A DNA stretch of 8,957 bases from a virus. Lineage: Duplodnaviria; Heunggongvirae; Uroviricota; Caudoviricetes. Of the stretch, positions 1 through 8,957 are shown piece by piece. The translations under genes were made by a program, and so were the position numbers. Position 1 is the stretch's first letter. Every line of letters begins with the position of its first letter. Location of the stretch: the IMG/VR virus record IMGVR_UViG_2737471848_000002, positions 1 to 8,957 of that record; one strand, given 5' to 3'. The notes under the pieces were generated by a model. The model saw only the letters and a list, made by a program, of their open reading frames with translations, was not told the origin of the DNA and did no database searches.

Positions 1-65
1 ACTTTCCAGAACCATACGAATCGCCCGCTGACGGACTTCGGGGGAAAAACGAGTATTTTTAGTCA
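1..65 (-). CDS. IS3-family transposase OrfA (HTH subunit), N-terminal 22 codons only; truncated by the window edge
   Basis: Minus-strand ATG at 65-63; translation MTKNTRFSPEVRQRAIRMVLES matches the conserved N-terminus of IS3-family OrfA proteins as I recall them. Confidence 0.65.
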
Positions 66-120
66 TCCTGTTTACCTCTTTCTCAGGGAGTTTAGTCTCC
101 AGGATTTCCGGGGCGGTTCA
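1..120 (-). mobile_element. IS3-family insertion sequence, terminal fragment (IS629/IS1203-like end: inverted repeat, leader and start of orfA); the element continues beyond the left window edge
   Basis: Reverse complement of 1-120 reads TGAACCGCCCCGGAAATCCTGGAGACTAAACTCCCTGAGAAAGAGGTAAACAGG followed by ATG ACT AAA AAT ACT CGT..., i.e. a TGAACCG-type terminal inverted repeat, a GAGG Shine-Dalgarno and the start of an OrfA-like ORF. The outermost base of the element is at 120. Specific IS name is from memory and not verified. Confidence 0.7.
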
Positions 121-166
121 TGCAGAGAATGGCTGCTGCAATTGAGAATTACTGGAGTGAACCATA

Positions 167-457
167 ATGGCTAACCTACGCAAAGAAGCGCGCGGCAGAG
201 AATGCCAGGTACGTATTTACGGCATATGCAATGGCAATCCTGAAACTACAGTTCTGGCACATTACCGGATGGCTGGAATTTGCGGAACGGGGATGAAGCC
301 TGACGACCTGATCGGTGCGTGGGCTTGTAGCGCGTGTCACGATGAAATCGACCGACGCACCCATAATCTCGACAACAAAGACGCCAGACTTTACCACCTC
401 GAAGGCGTGATCAGGACGCAGGCGATACTGCTGAAGGAGGGGAAGATTAAGTCATGA
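167..457 (+). CDS. Nin-region DUF1364-family protein (YbcO-like putative zinc-binding nuclease), 96 aa
   Basis: ORF 167-457 with GGAG at 152-155 upstream. Five Cys including a CSACH motif (C13, C21, C39, C54, C57). Size and pattern match my recollection of E. coli DLP12 YbcO, which sits directly upstream of rusA in lambdoid prophages. The stop overlaps the rusA start (ATGA at 454-457). Confidence 0.6.
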   Translation: MANLRKEARGRECQVRIYGICNGNPETTVLAHYRMAGICGTGMKPDDLIGAWACSACHDEIDRRTHNLDNKDARLYHLEGVIRTQAILLKEGKIKS

Positions 458-816
458 ACGAATATCAGTTTGTGCTTCCTTACCCGCCGTCGGTGAACAC
501 CTACTGGCGAAGACGGGGAAACCAATACTACATCAGCGATAAAGGCCAGAAATACCGAAAAGACGTTCAGCAAATCATCCGCCAACTCAAGTTAGACATT
601 TTCACCAAATCACGACTCCGCATCAAAGTCATCGCAGACGTTCCAGACTCCCGCCGCCGCGACCTCGACAACATCCTGAAAGGTTTACTCGACTCCCTTA
701 TCCACGCCGGATTTGCGGAAGACGACGAGCAATTCGATGACATTCGCGTAATTCGTGGTGTGAAAGTACCAGGCGGACGGCTTGGAATAAAAATCACCGA
801 ACTGGAGAACGTATGA
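454..816 (+). CDS. rusA: Holliday junction resolvase RusA (crossover junction endodeoxyribonuclease), 120 aa
   Basis: Translation MNEYQFVLPYPPSVNTYWRRRG...DSRRRDLDNILKGLLDSL...GGRLGIKITELENV aligns along its whole length with E. coli RusA as recalled ([20 protein letters not shown]...DRRRRDLDNLQKA...GGRLELTITEMGNE), including the acidic catalytic cluster D-x4-D-x-D. Translationally coupled to both neighbours. Confidence 0.88.
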   Translation: MNEYQFVLPYPPSVNTYWRRRGNQYYISDKGQKYRKDVQQIIRQLKLDIFTKSRLRIKVIADVPDSRRRDLDNILKGLLDSLIHAGFAEDDEQFDDIRVIRGVKVPGGRLGIKITELENV

Positions 817-1001
817 ACGCCACAATTAAAACGATACCAGAGCTTCTTATCCAGACAAGAGGCAATCAGACCGAAGTGGCGAGGATGCTTTCCTGCGCAA
901 GAGGAACAGTGCTCAAGTACAACCGAGACAGAAAAGGCGAGCGTCACGTAATAGTTAACGGCGTCCTGATGGTCAAACAGGGCAAGAGGGGAAGACGATG
1001 A
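813..1001 (+). CDS. ninH: NinH-like small DNA-binding protein, 62 aa
   Basis: Translation MNATIKTIPELLIQTRGNQTEVARMLSCARGTVLKYNRDRKGERHVIVNGVLMV resembles lambda NinH as recalled (MTFSVKTIPDMLVEAYGNQTEVARRLKCSRGTVRKYVDDKDGKMHAIVNDVLMV). The start overlaps the rusA stop and the stop overlaps the Q start. Confidence 0.78.
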   Translation: MNATIKTIPELLIQTRGNQTEVARMLSCARGTVLKYNRDRKGERHVIVNGVLMVKQGKRGRR

Positions 1002-1621
1002 GACTCGAAAGCGTAGCTAAATTTCATTCGCCAAAAAGCCCGATGATGAGCGACTCACCACGGGCTACAGCTTCTGACTCTCTTTCCGGTACTGATGTGA
1101 TGGCTGCTATGGGGATGGCGCAATCACAAGCCGGATTCGGAATGGCTGCATTCTGCGGTAAGCATGAACTCAGCCAGAACGACAAACAAAAGGCTATCAA
1201 CTATCTGATGCAATTTGCACACAAGGTATCGGGGAAATACCGTGGTGTGGCAAAGCTCGAAGGAAATACTAAGGCAAAGGTACTGCAAGTGCTCGCAACA
1301 TTCGCTTATGCGGATTATTGCCGTAGTGCCGCGACGCCGGGCGCAAGATGCAGAGATTGCCACGGTACAGGTCGGGCAGTTGATATAGCAAAAACAGAGC
1401 AGTGGGGGAGAGTTGTTGAGAAAGAATGCGGAAGATGCAAAGGTGTCGGCTATTCAAGAATGCCAGCAAGCGCCGCATATCGCGCTGTAACGATGCTAAT
1501 CCCAAATCTTACTCAACCCACCTGGTCACGCACTGTTAAGCCGCTGTATGACGCTCTGGTGGTTCAATGCCACAAGGAAGAGTCAATCGCAGACAACATT
1601 TTGAATGCAGTCACACGTTAG
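998..1621 (+). CDS. Q: Late-gene antitermination protein Q (lambda type), 207 aa
   Basis: 207-aa translation MRLESVAKFHSPKSPMMSDSPRATASD... with the C-terminal CRDCHGTGR...CGRCKGVG zinc-finger region is, as far as I can recall, essentially identical to phage lambda Q. It is followed by a lambda-like pR' promoter. Confidence 0.92.
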   Translation: MRLESVAKFHSPKSPMMSDSPRATASDSLSGTDVMAAMGMAQSQAGFGMAAFCGKHELSQNDKQKAINYLMQFAHKVSGKYRGVAKLEGNTKAKVLQVLATFAYADYCRSAATPGARCRDCHGTGRAVDIAKTEQWGRVVEKECGRCKGVGYSRMPASAAYRAVTMLIPNLTQPTWSRTVKPLYDALVVQCHKEESIADNILNAVTR

Positions 1622-1664
1622 CAGCATGATTGCCACGGATGGCAACATATTAACGGCATGATAT

Positions 1665-1720
1665 TGACTTTTTGAATAAAGTTGGGTAAATTTGACTCTA
1701 ACGATGGGTTGCTGCCTTCG
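1665..1720 (+). promoter_or_regulatory. Late promoter pR' with overlapping Q-utilisation (qut) site and initial transcribed pause region
   Basis: -35 TTGACT at 1665-1670, 17-bp spacer, -10 TAAATT at 1688-1693, predicted start near 1700, then AACGATGGG in the initial transcribed region. This matches the lambda pR' architecture I recall, placed immediately downstream of Q. Confidence 0.75.
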
Positions 1721-1723
1721 TTC

Positions 1724-1760
1724 AAGCCCTGATATTAACGTCTCGGGGCTTTTTGCGTTT
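1724..1760 (+). terminator. Putative promoter-proximal terminator (tR'-like) that Q-modified RNA polymerase would read through
   Basis: AAGCCC (1724-1729) pairs with GGGCTT (1746-1751), followed by TTTTGCGTTTT. The stem is short with a 16-nt loop, so intrinsic termination strength is uncertain. Confidence 0.4.
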
Positions 1761-2071
1761 TAAGCACAACGGAAAGCCTTCTTTCATGCCCTGCTTAGGC
1801 TCGACACTAAGTATTTGGGAGAGTTGGCTTCCCCATGTGGTTAAAACAGGGTTTGTAATGGGTACTCAGCCAAAGAACCTTCCTGTAGGGCGCTGAGCTA
1901 AGTCTCACGTAGTAGCCACCACATCCTAACCTGCTACCTCAGGAAATCGGTCGAAAGACGCCTGATAAACGTAACTGGTCCCCTTCAGCTATGGCTAGAC
2001 CGGCCAGTCGAAAAGCAGTATCGTCACTGCCTGCCATAGCGAACATAGACGAGCAACTAGACGAGGTTGTT

Positions 2072-2347
2072 ATGGAAAAAATCTCTGGAAGAGAACTGCA
2101 TTTTCTCAATCGAATTCTTCAATTTAAGCAGGAGAGAATTGCTGATTCTGACGTACAGGATGATGAGATTCTCATGGTTGACTCATTGGTCCGTCATGGA
2201 TATCTTGCTGTTGGCTTTTTCGACCGTGATAATAACGGCGGATATCATAGCTTAATGCAATACTACTCTCTTACCGAACTTGGCGTTGCAGCTCATAAAG
2301 ATGAATGGAAATGGAGAGGGAATCCAAATTCAAATAAAGGTCGCTAA
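2072..2347 (+). CDS. Hypothetical protein, 91 aa, acidic; moron ORF under pR'/Q control; no family recognised
   Basis: ORF with GAGG at 2063-2066 five nt upstream of ATG 2072. The in-frame upstream ATG at 1991 (118-aa version) has no Shine-Dalgarno and lies inside an 8-bp inverted repeat. The stop codon is embedded in a strong intrinsic terminator. Only one other + ORF (2067-2255, internal alternate frame) and no minus-strand ORF of 60 aa or more compete here. Confidence 0.5.
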   Translation: MEKISGRELHFLNRILQFKQERIADSDVQDDEILMVDSLVRHGYLAVGFFDRDNNGGYHSLMQYYSLTELGVAAHKDEWKWRGNPNSNKGR

Positions 2348-2363
2348 GGCGGCCTTTTTATTG
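2336..2363 (+). terminator. Rho-independent terminator overlapping the stop codon of the moron ORF
   Basis: AAAGGTCGC - TAAG - GCGGCCTTT followed by TTATTG: a GC-rich stem with one G-U pair, a tetraloop and a T-tract. Confidence 0.6.
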
Positions 2364-2652
2364 CACGACATTTCTGAAAGCGCATTCCACCAAAAACCAG
2401 ACAGACAAAACCCTCACCTTATCCGCTGTGGCTACGGTGCGGTGTGCTTTGCATAAAAGAAAACCAGCTCAATGGCTGGCTTCGTGAAAGCGGGTGGCAA
2501 GAGGTTGCGCTAACAACCTGATGCCGTTTTGCCCGTGCATATCGGTCACGAACAAATCTGATTACTAAACACAGTAGCCTGGATTTGTTCTATCAGTAAT
2601 CGACCTTATTCCTAATTAAATAGAGCAAATCCCCTCAATGAAGGGGTAGAGC

Positions 2653-2856
2653 ATGTACCGTATGGACAAAATCAGAGAATGGTTCAGTTACAGCTTCGGA
2701 GGACTGACTGCGATGGGTGGCATTCTCTCCCTGAATGACTGGGCTGTCATCATTGGTATTCTTTGTACTGTCGGCACATTTGGCATCAACTGGTACTACA
2801 AGCGCAAAGAGCGCGAGGACAGATTGAATGGCAATGTCACCGGCACTACGAAATAG
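2653..2856 (+). CDS. Class II holin of the phage 21 S21 / DLP12 EssD type (pinholin) with a dual-start motif, 67 aa
   Basis: Translation [57 protein letters not shown] has two hydrophobic segments, a Gly/Ala/Ser-rich first TMD and a charged C-terminus. The M-Y-R-M start mirrors the M-K-S-M dual start of S21. AAGGGG Shine-Dalgarno at 2641-2646. Sits immediately upstream of a SAR endolysin. Confidence 0.8.
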
Positions 2857-3331
2857 CGTAATAGCGGCGATAAGTGGCGGGGCTATTGCTATAGCATCTG
2901 TGTTAATCACTGGCCCAAGTGGTAACGATGGTCTGGAAGGTGTGAGACATAATCCTTACAAAGACATAGTTGGTGTATGGACTGTATGTTACGGGCATAC
3001 AGGAAAAGACATCATGCTCGGTAAAACGTATACCGAAGCAGAATGCAAAGCTCTCCTGAATAAAGACCTTGCCACGGTCGCCAGACAAATTAACCCGTAC
3101 ATCAAAGTCGATATACCGGAAACAACGCGCGGCGCTCTTTACTCGTTCGTCTACAACGTGGGGGCTGGCAATTTCAGAACATCGACGCTTCTTCGCAAAA
3201 TAAACCAGGGTGATATCAAAGGCGCATGTGACCAGCTACGTCGCTGGACATACGCTGGCGGTAAGCAATGGAAAGGGCTGATGACTCGCCGTGAGATTGA
3301 GCGTGAAGTCTGTTTATGGGGGCAGCAATGA
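2828..3331 (+). CDS. SAR (signal-arrest-release) endolysin, T4-lysozyme-like glycoside hydrolase family 24, R21/P1 Lyz type
   Basis: N-terminal Gly/Ala-rich weakly hydrophobic SAR segment [19 protein letters not shown], followed by the catalytic triad E-x8-D-x5-T in [17 protein letters not shown]. Near-collinear with the phage 21 / DLP12 endolysin as recalled. GAGGA at 2815-2819. The start overlaps the holin 3' end. Confidence 0.88.
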
Positions 3332-3765
3332 GCAGAGTAACCGCGATTATCTCCGCTCTGGTTATCTGCATCATCGTCTGCCTGTCATGGGCTGTTAATC
3401 ATTACCGTGATAAAGCCATTGCCTATAAAGAACAGCGCGATAAGGCCACGTACATCATTGCTGACATGCAGAAGCGTCAACGTGACGTAGCAGAACTCGA
3501 TGCCAGATATACAAAGGAGCTTGCTGATGCTAACGCGACTATCGAAAGTCTCCGTGCTGATGTTTCTGCTGGTCGTAAGCGCCTGCAAGTCGCCGCCACC
3601 TGTGCAAAGTCAACGACCGGAGCCAGCAGCATGGGCGATGGAGAAAGCCCAAGACTTACAGCAGATGCTGAACTCAATTATTACCGTCTCCGAAGTGGAA
3701 TCGACAGGATAACCGCGCAGGTTAACTACCTGCAGGAGTACATCAGGACGCAATGCCTGAAGTAA
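3328..3765 (+). CDS. Rz: Rz i-spanin (inner-membrane spanin subunit)
   Basis: Translation from ATG 3328, [28 protein letters not shown]..., matches the lambda Rz N-terminus as recalled: one N-terminal TMD and a coiled-coil periplasmic domain. ATGA overlap with the endolysin stop. GGGGG Shine-Dalgarno at 3318-3322. The track ORF start at 3316 lacks a Shine-Dalgarno. Confidence 0.85.
3527..3712 (+). CDS. Rz1: Rz1 o-spanin (outer-membrane lipoprotein spanin subunit), embedded in the +1 frame of Rz
   Basis: Internal ATG at 3527 preceded by AAGGAG (3513-3518). Signal peptide [20 protein letters not shown] with lipobox V-S-A-C, then a Pro-rich mature region ([13 protein letters not shown]) and a C-terminus resembling lambda Rz1 (NSIITVSE versus NGIISPSE). 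Wholly contained within Rz. Confidence 0.7.
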
Positions 3766-3797
3766 TTTTTTTGCAAATCACAAAGTCCATTTAATGA

Positions 3798-3820
3798 GCC
3801 TCGCGATGCGGGGCTTTTTT
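3798..3820 (+). terminator. Rho-independent terminator after the lysis cassette (first of a tandem pair)
   Basis: GCCTCG - CGATG - CGGGGC (one G-U pair) followed by TTTTTT. Confidence 0.6.
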
Positions 3821-3827
3821 GCAATAA

Positions 3828-3852
3828 ATGCGTACCGCAACGCATGTTTTTT
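3828..3852 (+). terminator. Rho-independent terminator (second of the tandem pair)
   Basis: ATGCGT - ACCGCA - ACGCAT perfect 6-bp stem followed by GTTTTTT. Confidence 0.55.
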
Positions 3853-3967
3853 ACACCGAACCTGACCCTTTGGAATGGGCCTTTGAGGATACCAGTTAGT
3901 GCTGGCGAGCCTCGGTGGGCTGGTTTCCTGTGCGGCAAAGGTTCATTTCAAATGGTAGGTAAACGTT

Positions 3968-4489
3968 ATGAATATCGTGCCACTTAATTACAAAGGTGAA
4001 ATTGTCAGTTTCAACACTGATGGTTGGATCAACGTCACAGGTGTTGCTGAGAGATTTGGGAAACGCATTGATAACTGGATGCGTTTGGCAGAAACGCTTG
4101 AATACGTTCGTGCTTTAGACGAAGCGTTGACCGGGAAAGAATCTCAAATTTTACATCCCTCACAATCGAGGTATGTAAAAACCAGCAAGGCACGAAAGGA
4201 CAGGGGTGGTGGTACGTGGCTACATCCAAAACTTTCAGTTGCATTTGCCCGTTGGTGTGATGCTCGTTTTGCTGTGTGGTGCGACCTGCACATTGATAGT
4301 CTGCTTCGCGGTGAACTGACTGAGCAGCAGAAATATGAGCAAGCATGTCGCATTCGCGATGACCGGAAATCAAAAGCCAGCAATGGGGCAAGAGAGATGG
4401 CTCGCTGGCGATGGGATAAGCCGGTTATTGAAGCAAATGTCGAGTACTGGCGCGAGCAACTGCAGTTGACTCTCGATATCGCTTGCTGA
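3968..4489 (+). CDS. KilA-N domain-containing protein (putative DNA-binding / antirepressor-like accessory protein), 173 aa
   Basis: ORF with AGGT at 3957-3960 seven nt upstream of the ATG. The N-terminal region MNIVPLNYKGEIVSFNTDGWINVTGVAERFGK...W...L resembles KilA-N/APSES-type domains as I recall them. Family assignment is from memory. Confidence 0.6.
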   Translation: MNIVPLNYKGEIVSFNTDGWINVTGVAERFGKRIDNWMRLAETLEYVRALDEALTGKESQILHPSQSRYVKTSKARKDRGGGTWLHPKLSVAFARWCDARFAVWCDLHIDSLLRGELTEQQKYEQACRIRDDRKSKASNGAREMARWRWDKPVIEANVEYWREQLQLTLDIAC

Positions 4490-4560
4490 TGGCAAACGCA
4501 AAACTGCGTTATCGGAAAAATCAAAGCATTACGAGAACTGAGCAACAGCTATCCATTACA

Positions 4561-4589
4561 AAGCCCATCTACGGGTGGGCTTGATAATG
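4561..4589 (+). repeat. Hairpin-GATAATG element, copy 1 (AAGCCCA / TGGGCTT stem followed by GATAATG)
   Basis: 7-bp inverted repeat 4561-4567 / 4576-4582 with an 8-nt loop containing CTAC, directly followed by GATAATG. A second copy with the same architecture lies at 5169-5201. Confidence 0.5.
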
Positions 4590-4779
4590 AAACCGGAATT
4601 TATTCTGGGTAACCAGTTACGGCAGTACAGCGAAACAACCCAAGCCAGTAAGTGGGGAAATAACACTGGCAGCCACTGAAAGATGAACCTCCTGCCTTAT
4701 GGCAAAAAAAAGATTCTTTGTGGTGGCGGACTGATGGAAAGACATCCTAATCAAGCAACCACTCCACAGGGTCATAATT

Positions 4780-5160
4780 ATGAACGACCAGCAAATCGAA
4801 AAAGAAATCGTTGAGAAAGGCAAAACCGCTCCGAGAATCACTCCGCAGCACATCGAAGACGTGATTAAAAGCGAGCATTACTTTACTGCTTATGATGGAC
4901 GAAATGGTGCCATTTCCAGCAACGAATATTGTGGCAGGGAAAAACCAGAAGAAGGCGATCGTGATTTATCACCATTGAAGTTGCTCACTTTCTGCGTACT
5001 GGTGCTGAAGAATGGCTTCACCGTCACCGGAGAGAGTGCCTGTGCAAGCCCGGAAAACTTTGATGCAGAAATTGGTCGGAAGATTGCCCGGCAAAATGCT
5101 GTAAACAAAATCTGGATGCTCGAAGGTTACTTGCTGAAGCAGAAGCTAAGCGAACAGTAG
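4780..5160 (+). CDS. Phage gp49/gp66-family protein (Phage_gp49_66-like), function unknown, 126 aa
   Basis: 126-aa ORF. The C-terminal segment GESACASPENFDAEIGRKIARQNAVNKIWMLEGYLL matches my recollection of the conserved core of the N4 gp49 / Sf6 gp66 family, which occupies this lysis-to-terminase position in P22-like phages. Confidence 0.55.
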   Translation: MNDQQIEKEIVEKGKTAPRITPQHIEDVIKSEHYFTAYDGRNGAISSNEYCGREKPEEGDRDLSPLKLLTFCVLVLKNGFTVTGESACASPENFDAEIGRKIARQNAVNKIWMLEGYLLKQKLSEQ

Positions 5161-5168
5161 TTATTACA

Positions 5169-5201
5169 AAAGCCATTCCCTACAGAGTGGCTTTGATAAT
5201 G
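5169..5201 (+). repeat. Hairpin-GATAATG element, copy 2 (AAAGCCA / TGGCTTT stem followed by GATAATG)
   Basis: 7-bp inverted repeat 5169-5175 / 5188-5194 with a 12-nt loop containing CTAC, followed by GATAATGG. Paralogous to 4561-4589. Confidence 0.5.
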
Positions 5202-5216
5202 GCTTATACCCTACAC

Positions 5217-5242
5217 GGGATATCTTAACTGATATCCCTTTT
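5217..5242 (+). terminator. Perfect palindrome GGGATATC-TTAACT-GATATCCC followed by TTTT (terminator-like, or an operator-type protein-binding site)
   Basis: 8-bp perfect inverted repeat with a 6-nt loop and a T4 tract, between the gp49-like stop (5160) and the Shine-Dalgarno of the next ORF. Confidence 0.35.
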
Positions 5243-5263
5243 AACGGATAAACGGAGCCAACA

Positions 5264-5506
5264 ATGGCAGAGATTATTCCTATGACTGAAGAACAGAAAT
5301 TCCAGTTAGAGATTTACAAACTGGTCATGAACCAGAACGAAGCCGCAGAGGAAGCATTTCAGTTCATTGGCACTGACGAGCTGAAGCTTGAGCTATTCAA
5401 AATTCACTTCCAGTCAGGCGGCGCTAATTCAGATATCACGACCCGCACTATCGAAGCGGTGCGTAAATCGAAGGAAGCGTTAGACCTGTTCACCACCGGA
5501 GCATGA
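5264..5506 (+). CDS. Hypothetical protein, 80 aa (positional equivalent of the small orphan ORF upstream of gene 3 in P22-like phages)
   Basis: ORF with ACGGAG Shine-Dalgarno 6 nt upstream. Acidic, predicted helical; no family recognised. Confidence 0.5.
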   Translation: MAEIIPMTEEQKFQLEIYKLVMNQNEAAEEAFQFIGTDELKLELFKIHFQSGGANSDITTRTIEAVRKSKEALDLFTTGA

Positions 5507-5541
5507 TGCTCAACCTGAAATGACAACTAAGTGAGATGAAT

Positions 5542-6030
5542 ATGGCAGCACCAAAGGGCAACCGATTTTGGGAGGCCCGCAGTAGTCATGGGCGAAATCC
5601 TAAATTCGAATCGCCTGAGGCGCTGTGGGCTGCTTGTTGTGAATACTTCGAGTGGGCTGATGATAACCCACTATGGGAGGGTAAGGTATTTTCATATCAG
5701 GGAGAAATAATTAAGGCTAATGTCCCTAAGATGCGAGCCATGACTATTTCAGGATTGTGTACCTTCCTTGATATCACCAGGCAAACGTGGGGAACCTTCC
5801 GGTCAATGGAAGGTTTTTCTGACGTCACATCGCGAGCGGAAGACATCATCTACGACCAGAAATTCTCTGGCGCAGCCGCTGACCTTCTCAACGCTAACAT
5901 CATCGCCCGTGATTTGGGCATCAAAGAGCAGTCGCAAGTTGAAGACGTGACACCTGATAAGGGAGATCGCGATAAGCGGCGCTCTCGTATCAAGGAGCTA
6001 TTCAACCGTGGAACTGGACGCGATTCTTGA
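5542..6030 (+). CDS. Terminase small subunit, P22 gp3 type (DNA-packaging protein gp3), 162 aa
   Basis: Translation [44 protein letters not shown]... resembles the P22-like gp3 family as recalled. GTGAG Shine-Dalgarno 6 nt upstream of ATG 5542 (the track ORF starts two codons earlier at 5536). Immediately precedes and overlaps the large terminase gene. Confidence 0.8.
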
Positions 6031-7507
6031 TAACTTGAGCGACGAAGAGCAAATCGAATTGCTCGAGCTACTCGAAGAAGAAGAGAACTACCGGAACACA
6101 CACCTGCTATATGAATTTACGCCATACAGCAAACAGCGTGAGTTCATCGACGCCGGGCATGACTATCCAGAGCGCTGTTTTATGGCTGGTAACCAGCTTG
6201 GTAAGTCATTTACTGGTGCTGCTGAAGTCGCATTTCACCTTACCGGGCGTTATCCGGGCACAAAAGGATATCCTGCTGATGGTAAATATGGTGGGGAGTG
6301 GAAAGGTAAGCGTTTCTATGAGCCTGTTGTCTTCTGGATTGGTGGCGAGACAAACGAGACGGTAACCAAAACGACTCAACGCATCCTGTGCGGTCGTATT
6401 GAAGAGAATGATGAACCGGGCTACGGTTCAATACCGAAAGAGGACATCATTAGCTGGAAGAAGTCTCCTTTCTTTCCGAACCTTGTTGATCACCTTCTGG
6501 TTAAGCATCACACGGCTGATGGCGTTGAAGATGGCATTTCAATCTGCTACTTCAAGCCATACTCGCAAGGTCGTGCTCGCTGGCAGGGTGACACAATCCA
6601 CGGAGTGTGGTTTGACGAAGAACCACCATACAGCATTTATGGCGAAGGGCTTACCCGTACCAACAAATACGGGCAATTCTCAATCCTGACGTTTACCCCG
6701 CTGATGGGGATGTCTGACGTTGTTACCAAGTTCCTGAAGAATCCCAGCAAGTCGCAGAAAGTGGTCAACATGACCATCTATGACGCTGAGCACTATACCG
6801 ACGAGCAGAAAGAGCAAATCATCGCATCCTATCCTGAGCATGAGAGAGAGGCGCGTGCTCGCGGTATTCCTACGATGGGTAGTGGTCGAATCTTCCAGAT
6901 ACCGGAAGAGACGATTAAGTGTCAGCCGTTCGAGTGTCCTGATCACTTCTACGTAATTGGCGGTATGGATTTCGGATGGGATCACCCGCAGGCGCAGGTT
7001 CAGCTTTGGTGGGATAAGGACGCAGACACAATCTACGTTTCACGCGTGTGGAAGGCGAAAGAAAAGACAGCCGTTCAGGCGTGGGGAGCAGTTAAATCAT
7101 GGGCGCATAAAGTGCCAACCGCATGGCCTCATGACGGAAACCAGCACGAGAAGGGTGGCGGTGAGCAGCTCAAAGGGCAGTATGCAGACGCTGGATTTAT
7201 GATGTTGCAGGAGCATGCGACATGGCCTGATGGCGGTAATGCTGTTGAGCCTGGCATCACTGAATTGCGCGACATGATGCTTGATGGTCGCTTCAAAGTA
7301 TTCAACACCTGTGAGCCATTCTTTGAGGAGTTCCGCCTCTATCACCGTGATGAAAACGGGAAGATCGTCAAGCTTAACGACGACGTTCTCTCAGCCGTTC
7401 GCTATGCATACATGATGCGCCGCTTCGCAAAAATGATGCGCGACATCAAAAAACCAAAAGAGAAAAAGATACCAGCCCCAATCAGGCCCATCGCACGGAG
7501 AACTTAA
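6008..7507 (+). CDS. Terminase large subunit, P22 gp2 type (headful packaging ATPase/nuclease), 499 aa
   Basis: 499-aa ORF starting at GTG 6008 (no in-frame ATG for about 58 codons), with AGGAG at 5993-5997. Acidic N-terminus [18 protein letters not shown], Walker-A-like GNQLGKS, and length and sequence matching P22 gp2 as recalled. Overlaps the terS 3' end by 23 nt. Confidence 0.9.
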
Positions 7508-8957
7508 ATGGCCGACGAAAACAGACTCAATTCCATTCTGTGTAAGTTTGACGCAGACTGGATGGCGAGCGATGAAGCCAGAACCGAGGCGACAAATGAC
7601 CTGTATTTTAGCCGAGTGTCGCAATGGGATGACTGGCTATCAAACTACACCACCCTGCAATATCGCGGACAATTCGATGTTGTCCGCCCGGTGGTCAGGA
7701 AGCTGGTCGCAGAGATGCGCCGGAACCCTATCGACGTTCTCTTCCGACCAAAAGACGGTGCTAATCCTGATGCAGCCGATGTGTTGATGGGAATGTATCG
7801 TACTGATATGCGCCATAACACGGCAAAGATTGCCGTTAACGTTGGAGTTCGTGAGCAGATAGAGTCCGGCGTTGGTGCATGGCGTCTGCTCACGCAGTAC
7901 GAAGACAACGACCCAACAAGCAACAATCAGGTAATCCGACGCCTTCCAATCCATGAAGCCTGCTCACACGTCATATGGGATGCCAACAGCAAGCAGATGG
8001 ATAAGAGCGACGCCAAGCACTGCACGGTGATTAACGCCTTGTCACGCAATGGTTGGAAAGAGTTCGCAGAGGATTACGGCATTGATCCTGACACGCTGCC
8101 ATCTTTCCAGAATCCGAACGATACATGGCTGTTTCCGTGGGTATCGAATGATGTCGTCTACGTCGCTGAGTATTACGAGGTCGAAGAGAAGAAAGAGAAA
8201 GTCTTCATCTACCGCGACCCGCTGACAGGTGAGCCGGTCAGCTATTACCAGCAGGATATCAAAGACGTCATCGATGACCTGGCTAATCGTGGATTCATTA
8301 AGGTAGCAGAGCGTAAGGTCAAGCGTCGGCGTGTGTATAAGTCGATCATCACCTGCACGCAGATACTGAAAGACCGCGAGAAGATAGCCGGAGAGCATAT
8401 TCCAATCGTTCCAGTATATGGCGAATGGTCATTCGCTGGTGACAAGGAGTGCTACGAAGGAGTGGTAAGGCTGACGAAAGACGGTCAACGCCTTCGTAAC
8501 ATGATCATGTCATTCAACGCCGATATTGTTGCTCGTTCACCGAAGAAGAAACCGACTTTCTTCCCTGAGCAAATCGAAGGCTACGAATACATGTACGGTG
8601 GAAATGATGACTATCCGTACTATCTGCAGAACAGGACCGATGAAAACGGTAACGACCTGCCGATTGGTCCAATCTCCTACATGGAAAACCCTGAAGTGCC
8701 GCAAGCCAACGCTTACATGCTTGAGGCTGCCACCAACGCAGTGAAAGAGGTGGCTAGTCTTGGTGTGGATGCGCAGGCAGCAAACTCTCAGGTCGCTTTC
8801 GATACCGTCAATCAACTGAACATGCGGGCAGACCTTGAGACATACGTGTTTCAGGATAACCTGGCTACCGCAATGCGACGTGATGGCGAGATTTATGCCT
8901 CAATGGTCAACGATATTTATGACGTTCCTCGTCATGTAATGTCAACGACGGATGAAA
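7508..8957 (+). CDS. Portal protein, P22 gp1 type; 5' partial (N-terminal ~483 codons, continues beyond the right window edge)
   Basis: ATG at 7508 directly after the terL stop (TAA 7505-7507). The frame stays open to the window end, which is why it is absent from the ORF track. Translation [18 protein letters not shown]...[34 protein letters not shown]...[22 protein letters not shown]...[25 protein letters not shown] is collinear with the P22 portal as recalled. Confidence 0.9.

Follow-up and report, generated by a model that had tools for sequence, protein, structure and literature searches.

The window, by which we mean the whole stretch of 8,957 nucleotides analysed here, opens inside a transposable element and passes at base 121 into the nin region of a prophage. 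What is this element, what did it interrupt when it arrived, and is it the reason why the prophage is defective? An earlier note on this DNA had read the first 120 bp as the end of an IS3-family element lying against rightward transcription, and had proposed that polarity on transcription into the late antiterminator gene Q might leave the prophage attenuated or defective.

Over all 8957 bases the window is 100% identical to contig JARWBQ010000002.1 of GCA_037957285.1 (L013 9548-18504; also L017). Its 8,819 bp of phage DNA lie between an IS629 on the left and another insertion sequence, IS100, on the right. When window 1-600 was compared by megablast with complete E. coli genomes, one match was 100% identical with the IS part included, namely that of strain OkiPb01684 (L001), a strain from bovine faeces in Okinawa with a complete chromosome, which shares the nin insertion. 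Many other matches start exactly at base 120, and a junction between IS629 and the nin region identical to that of the window is present in 1/5426 complete E. coli genomes. Also used for comparison were the O128:H27 strain 90-9281 (L002), whose nin site is uninterrupted; GCA_014105715.1 (L011), which carries a sister prophage with an empty nin site; and GCA_047262435.1 (L016), a sister genome with the nin insertion.

The L011 prophage is 99.99% identical to window 120-8939, with zero mismatches and one 1-bp indel. This sole difference over 8.8 kb is an extra G in L011 (approximately position 12707), corresponding to window position ~3160 inside the lysozyme gene (window 2828-3331). The lysozyme gene is intact in the window and is not called in L011, where the extra G represents a frameshift or else an error of sequencing.

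A complete IS629 element upstream of the phage DNA

Followed leftwards in its own contig, the element at the start of the window is a full copy of IS629, a member of the IS3 family, 1310 bp long (L013 8358-9667). Window 1-120, on the minus strand, is the left-end 120 bp of this copy and is 100% identical to L013 9548-9667; the window starts inside the element, and the boundary between element and phage is exact at 120/121. The minus strand of this segment reads TGAACCGCCCCGGAAATCC..., or, written up to the first codon of the transposase, TGAACCGCCCCGGAAATCCTGGAGACTAAACTCCCTGAGAAAGAGGTAAACAGG-ATG.... The left terminal inverted repeat (IRL, TGAACCGCCCCGGAAATCCTGGAGACTAAAC...) occupies window 80-120 on the minus strand and pairs with the right one (IRR) at L013 8358-8398. 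The two repeats are 41-nt imperfect arms, 76% complementary, and span 1310 bp end to end. The ends read TGAACCG...CGGTTCA, that is, imperfect repeats of the form 5'-TG...CA-3', as in other IS3-family elements.

The coding content agrees with this assignment. Two partly overlapping genes, orfA with a helix-turn-helix domain and orfB with an rve domain, both lie on the minus strand, which is the two-gene arrangement of the IS3 family. By translation, the first 22 codons of orfA (MTKNTRFSPEVRQRAIRMVLES) fall at window 1-66, with the ATG at 66-64 on the minus strand. The full OrfA (108 amino acids) matches the Pfam domain HTH_Tnp_1 (PF01527, E=2.4e-12), and precomputed domain annotations give OrfB matches to PF00665 (rve), PF13276 and PF13683. 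The signature of programmed frameshifting is likewise present: the ALIL frameshift pseudoknot (RF01497) is found on the minus strand at L013 9216-9332 with 121.5 bits, against a gathering score of 50, and PGAP labels the gene in OkiPb01684 "IS3 family transposase, programmed frameshift." The element is accordingly a full-length IS629, an IS3-family member with a predicted OrfA/OrfAB transposase of the DDE type, made by -1 frameshifting. Elements of this family transpose by a copy-out-paste-in route via a circular intermediate.

Over 1310 bp the nin copy shares 99.9% identity with the IS629 OrfA/OrfB copy in phage BP-4795 (AJ556162), and it shares 98.5% with those of many Stx2a phages; the identification was made against IS629 copies annotated by their depositors. 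On these identities the element is IS629 itself, in one of its known subtypes. Three subtypes, differing by 4-5%, have been described (PMC3271280).

The earlier note had seen an IS3-family end from 120 bp alone, with a TGAACCG-type repeat and the start of OrfA on the minus strand, and had suggested leftward extension as a check. The extension bears it out: the full 1310-bp element with its inverted repeats, orfA and orfB and the pseudoknot is recovered leftwards, and the transposase ORFs, a matching inverted repeat and a target-site duplication are all present in the window's own contig.

The insertion site and the interrupted gene

The second check proposed was a comparison with uninterrupted homologous prophages, and L011 and L002 both provide an empty site. 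There the uninterrupted allele reads ...gagtggaTGCagagaatgg..., or over a longer stretch ...gctgagtggatgcagagaatggc.... Aligned with each other, the empty site is gagtggatgcagagaatgg and the filled site is ...gagtggatgc|TGAACCG...CGGTTCA|tgcagagaatgg. The left junction of the nin copy is ...gctgagtggatgc|TGAACCGCC, and the right junction (window 106-135) is GGCGGTTCA|tgcagagaatggc. The trinucleotide TGC stands on both sides of IS629, its right copy at window 121-123, and occurs once in the empty site; this is a short duplication within the range of 3-4 bp. IS629 is known to duplicate 3-4 bp and to insert without a sequence-specific target (PMC3271280). The junctions are those of a simple insertion, in which IS629 entered an 89-codon gene of the nin region, in the interval between ninF and ybcO, and duplicated TGC.

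In its intact form, at L011 9445-9714 and L002 5779-6048, the interrupted gene has 89 codons and lies between ninF and ybcO (MSDFSELISF...LAEWMQRMAAAIENYWSEP*). Its product matches PHROG 1258 (phrog_1258, function unknown; E=5.9e-38), while profile searches for Pfam and NCBIfam domains in the 89 amino acid protein gave no match. The insertion point follows codon 75. Alignment with the intact gene places the 3' remnant, codons 76-89 (QRMAAAIENYWSEP and a stop), at window 123-167 on the plus strand in frame 3: 14 codons at 123-164 and the stop TAA at 165-167, which overlaps the ybcO ATG at 167-169. The idea that a small nin-region gene had been split is correct, since the two halves of the PHROG 1258 gene flank the element, but the reading given for it (frame 1, approximately 17 codons, stop at 172-174) has to be replaced. 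The frame 1 reading of window 121-174 (CREWLLQLRITGVNHNG*) is a chance ORF that crosses the ybcO ATG.

On the other side of the element, the reading frame of the truncated gene continues for 236 nt within IS629, giving a chimeric ORF of 153 amino acids. The exact 153 amino acid chimera occurs on only two long contigs, with two partial versions at the ends of contigs of approximately 3 kb. Because the chimera is so restricted and the junction is found in just one complete genome, the distribution indicates that the nin insertion is recent and confined to a lineage of bovine-associated E. coli. For annotation, the 153 amino acid ORF running into the IS should be regarded as a gene-calling chimera. 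The only demonstrable effect of the insertion is the loss of the 89 amino acid protein.

The chimera has 877 database matches, and most of the best 120 cover about half of the query at high identity and carry diverse, unrelated Pfam domains. This is the pattern expected of ORFs that run from other genes into the right end of IS629. Gene calling seems to produce such artefacts widely where IS629 adjoins other DNA, and the matches incidentally map many of its insertion sites.

Genes downstream of the insertion

The gene order around the element is ninB-ninE-ninF-...-ybcO/rusA-ninH-Q, followed by a late promoter and lysis genes, as judged from Pfam matches and annotations. The first intact gene past the IS is ybcO, which encodes a putative nuclease of the DUF1364 family (window 167-457, plus strand; PF07102, E=2.8e-44). 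It is followed, all on the plus strand, by the Holliday-junction resolvase gene rusA (454-816; PF05866, E=8.4e-17), ninH (813-1001; PF06322, E=1.3e-25) and an intact late antiterminator gene Q of 207 amino acids (998-1621; PF03589, E=1.3e-57). With minus-strand transposase genes facing plus-strand ybcO, rusA, ninH and Q, the element does lie in the nin region upstream of Q and against rightward transcription, as had been stated. The Q protein carries the identical PGAP accession, WP_001235461.1, in L001, where the IS is present, and in the uninterrupted L002.

A consensus scan finds a pR'-like late promoter, TTGACT-17-TAAATT, on the plus strand at window 1664-1692, 43 bp after Q, as a pattern match only. 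Its hexamers are those of lambda pR', so the site is probably the Q-dependent late promoter. Because it lies downstream of the IS, it is physically unaffected by the insertion. The genes that follow Q are those for holin, lysozyme, Rz, a KilA-N protein, a gp49-like protein, DUF2560, the small and large terminase subunits, and the 5' part of a P22-type portal protein. Q, the pR'-like site and the lysis and terminase genes are intact in the window.

The interval between Q and the holin gene has features of its own. The Rfam int-alpA RNA (RF02996) matches window 1988-2054 on the plus strand, approximately 300 nt downstream of the pR'-like promoter, with 43.7 bits (gathering score 35.8) and without the U-rich tail of the consensus. 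A 118 amino acid ORF (window 1991-2347, plus strand) has a start that overlaps this match, and PGAP calls a 91 amino acid version of it. Pfam, PHROG and NCBIfam gave no match to the 118 amino acid ORF, which may not be a real gene.

The insertion in the course of prophage decay

The phage DNA also ends at a transposable element. The P22-type portal gene is split at 8939/8940 by IS100, a member of the IS21 family, whose terminal 18 bp (TGTCAACGACGGATGAAA) form window 8940-8957 on the minus strand. Comparison of the junctions identifies a 5-bp target duplication, TGTAA, with its left copy at window 8935-8939. The junction in L013 reads ...cgtcaTGTAA|TGTCAACGACGG..., the other IS100 end in OkiPb01684 reads ...CCGTTCGTGACA|TGTAAcgctgac, and the intact portal gene of L011 reads ...cgtcatgtaacgctgac. 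From L013 18487 onward the sequence agrees at 100% identity with an element of NZ_AP042519 that carries the annotation "IS21-like element IS100 / IS100kyp", and istB, then istA, follow on the minus strand past the window end in the source contig. Every uninterrupted homologue stops matching the window at 8939.

This contig has two further lesions upstream. An IS629 that belongs to a second subtype, with 93.7% identity to the nin copy, has removed approximately the first 27 codons of replication gene O (the 4-bp duplication ATAC of this IS629 is visible in L011), and ISEc10 interrupts the toprim primase/helicase gene. The prophage in the window's own contig, over approximately 20 kb, has thus received at least four IS insertions (two IS629 subtypes, ISEc10, IS100). 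The prophage is a P22-like remnant that is decaying by multiple IS insertions.

In which order did these insertions occur? L011 has the O and primase lesions in common with the window's contig (99.99% identity), but its nin site is empty and its portal gene intact. The phage was consequently replication-defective before the nin IS629 arrived. The ordering is one of parsimony across four assemblies, and by parsimony the insertions of IS629 in O and of ISEc10 in the primase gene predate the nin insertion. Decay would have begun with these two, continued with IS629 in the nin gene and IS100 in the portal gene, and gone on to more IS629 copies and an inversion in OkiPb01684. The nin IS629 would then have entered a prophage already deprived of replication genes O and P by other insertion sequences.

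L011 also carries an IS629 of the identical subtype 8.5 kb upstream, in the DUF2740 gene. A local hop from this copy as the donor of the nin insertion was considered and rejected. Since L016 has the nin copy together with an intact DUF2740 gene, the DUF2740 and nin copies are independent insertions in different sub-lineages.

The left flank of the prophage differs from strain to strain. In L016, cI-cro-cII-DUF2740 and the 5' part of O are still contiguous with the O-proximal IS629. In L017, the window's own genome, the DNA to the left of this IS629 is not cII, cro or cI, and pR is no longer linked to the operon. Here (L017 1-2698) two IS629 copies of the second subtype, in inverted orientation, enclose a 1-kb unrelated segment, which contains a fragment of IstB together with small ORFs of 96 and 77 amino acids, in place of the cII-DUF2740-O5' flank of L016. 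This replacement by an inverted IS629 pair indicates that the immunity region of L017 was unlinked by an IS-mediated rearrangement. A lineage-wide deletion of the immunity region (N to cII), suggested by OkiPb01684, does not hold, as L016 keeps cI-cro-cII-O5'. Judged from these assemblies, loss or rearrangement of the immunity segment is strain-specific and limited to L017 and OkiPb01684.

OkiPb01684 has decayed further. Additional IS629 copies have entered its Rz gene, where there is also an inversion, its portal and capsid genes and an N homologue, and an IS1 has entered the tailspike gene. Two identical IS629 copies (L001 1973-3282 and 15673-16982) flank an inverted block that runs from the truncated O to the 5' part of Rz; one inversion junction falls in Rz at window 3670-3672, and the other borders the 3' part of a lambda-N-like gene next to ral. 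The arrangement of these copies identifies the block as an IS629-mediated inversion inside the prophage.

Taken together, what we see is very probably an ordinary IS629 insertion in a nin gene of an already defective P22-like prophage. Because that prophage had already lost replication genes O and P, the insertion was probably selectively neutral.

Does the element influence Q or rusA?

The proposal of the earlier note was that the antisense element could stop N-antiterminated pR transcription before Q, so that the prophage would be attenuated or defective for late expression. The geometry is suitable for this: IS629 separates the early genes from Q and is oriented against them. Once the chimeric ORF has ended within the element, approximately 1.07 kb of IS RNA remains untranslated, with many windows on the transcribed strand that are rich in C and poor in G, which makes Rho-dependent termination of unmodified transcripts plausible. 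In L016, where the upstream cI-cro-cII region is still contiguous, pR read-through into Q could still matter for the lysis genes. A terminator scan, however, found terminator-like sites on the plus strand of the IS at chance level (2 weak sites vs 1.9 expected), and in the window's own genome the pR side does not adjoin the truncated O. N-modified RNA polymerase, moreover, is said to have been found by Adhya, Gottesman and de Crombrugghe in 1974 to override the Rho-dependent polarity caused by IS elements and to read through it. Suppression of polarity by N/nutL has been reported as partial (PMC6260861). Stx prophages that carry IS629 still induce spontaneously, and their hosts make Stx (PMC10810198).

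Any one of the lesions in the portal, O and primase genes is by itself lethal for the phage, and those in O and the primase gene are older than the nin IS629. The prophage is indeed defective, as the earlier note had supposed, but not for the reason it gave: with the portal, O and primase genes broken and pR unlinked in the source genome, polarity on Q is not the cause. Any reduction of read-through into ybcO-Q would be irrelevant to phage viability here, and we regard polarity as an improbable explanation of the locus.

The opposite effect has a precedent. By analogy with IS2 and IS10 in DLP12, IS629 might supply or create an outward promoter and so activate the silent ybcO-rusA(-ninH-Q) genes of a dead prophage. 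The quiescent rusA of E. coli K-12 is expressed after IS2 or IS10 inserts upstream of it (PMC1636454), and in the window the IS629 end is just 44 bp upstream of ybcO-rusA. Two other prophages have IS629 nearby. In ETEC4085 (L004 2812-4121) an independent copy, flanked by the target duplication GAA, interrupts a KilAC antirepressor gene 32 bp ahead of the ybcO ATG; in the O111:H8 strain 8B (L015 ~1812-3120) a third copy, accompanied by a rearrangement, is found in ninE. Both are oriented like the copy in the window, whether through a preference for this region or by chance; agreement in orientation among three insertions is not significant (chance 0.25). In IS3-family elements, furthermore, the outward -35 element lies at the right end (IRR), and it is the IRL end that faces ybcO. 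A consensus scan for sigma-70-like promoters on the plus strand of window 1-166, which weak promoters could escape, gave no match. Were activation to occur all the same, RusA, and perhaps YbcO and Q, would be turned on in a dead prophage, and the recurrence of IS629 in the same orientation near ybcO would be due not to chance but to selection or to a hot spot in this region. We consider this still less probable than polarity.

Finally, an assembly artefact or a junction produced by IS-mediated rearrangement (misassembly or recombination between IS copies) might be suspected, as the window begins inside a multicopy repeat with 23 IS629-like places in OkiPb01684 and as IS629-mediated rearrangements have occurred elsewhere in the lineage (the inversion in OkiPb01684, the replaced left flank in L017), but the element lies between the two parts of a single gene, its 3-bp duplication is perfect, an empty site that corresponds to it exists, and the identical junction recurs in three assemblies made independently, including one complete chromosome, so that we give this possibility almost no weight.

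Discussion

The insertion thus explained as a simple event resembles in every respect what is known of IS629, an IS3-family element of E. coli and Shigella with the isoforms IS1203 and IS3411: length, ends, frameshift, 3-bp duplication and residence in a prophage all agree. We see no difference of substance from known IS629 copies, and the PHROG 1258 gene is apparently just another site. Few insertion sequences are as abundant in EHEC as IS629, and in O157:H7, 62% of its copies are in prophages or prophage-like elements (PMC3271280). The position of IS629 in Stx phages varies between strains without abolishing induction (PMC10810198). The locus is similar to the lambdoid and Stx prophages of EHEC (phiPA2/phiPA8, Sakai Sp), where IS629 likewise hits accessory genes or intergenic DNA and contributes to differences between strains and to prophage decay (PMC3271280, PMC10810198). 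Unlike them, it belongs to a P22-like remnant (intS/argW-associated) that is devoid of stx, has at least four IS in approximately 20 kb, and has no phenotype attached to it.

Two other comparisons are instructive. As with the IS2 and IS10 insertions of DLP12, which were found as rus suppressors of ruv, an IS stands immediately upstream of ybcO-rusA in a defective lambdoid prophage (PMC1636454). Those insertions activate rusA transcription, whereas no outward promoter is detectable at the IS629 of the window. The classical polar insertions (IS1 and IS2 in gal, IS2 in lambda early genes) also offer a parallel, in that an IS lies inside an operon and its untranslated antisense RNA is a potential substrate for Rho. 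Classical IS1 and IS2 insertions were shown to be polar, and the polarity was relieved by lambda N. The present case differs from these in that the upstream promoter region is rearranged in the window's source genome.

The nin IS629 is accordingly an already known element, with a known mechanism and in a known pattern, that of ordinary prophage decay. The region is best annotated as a defective P22-like prophage remnant, and its intact Q, lysis and terminase genes are no evidence of an inducible phage. What the locus contributes is one more insertion site of IS629 and a clear illustration of how insertion sequences degrade a prophage step by step.
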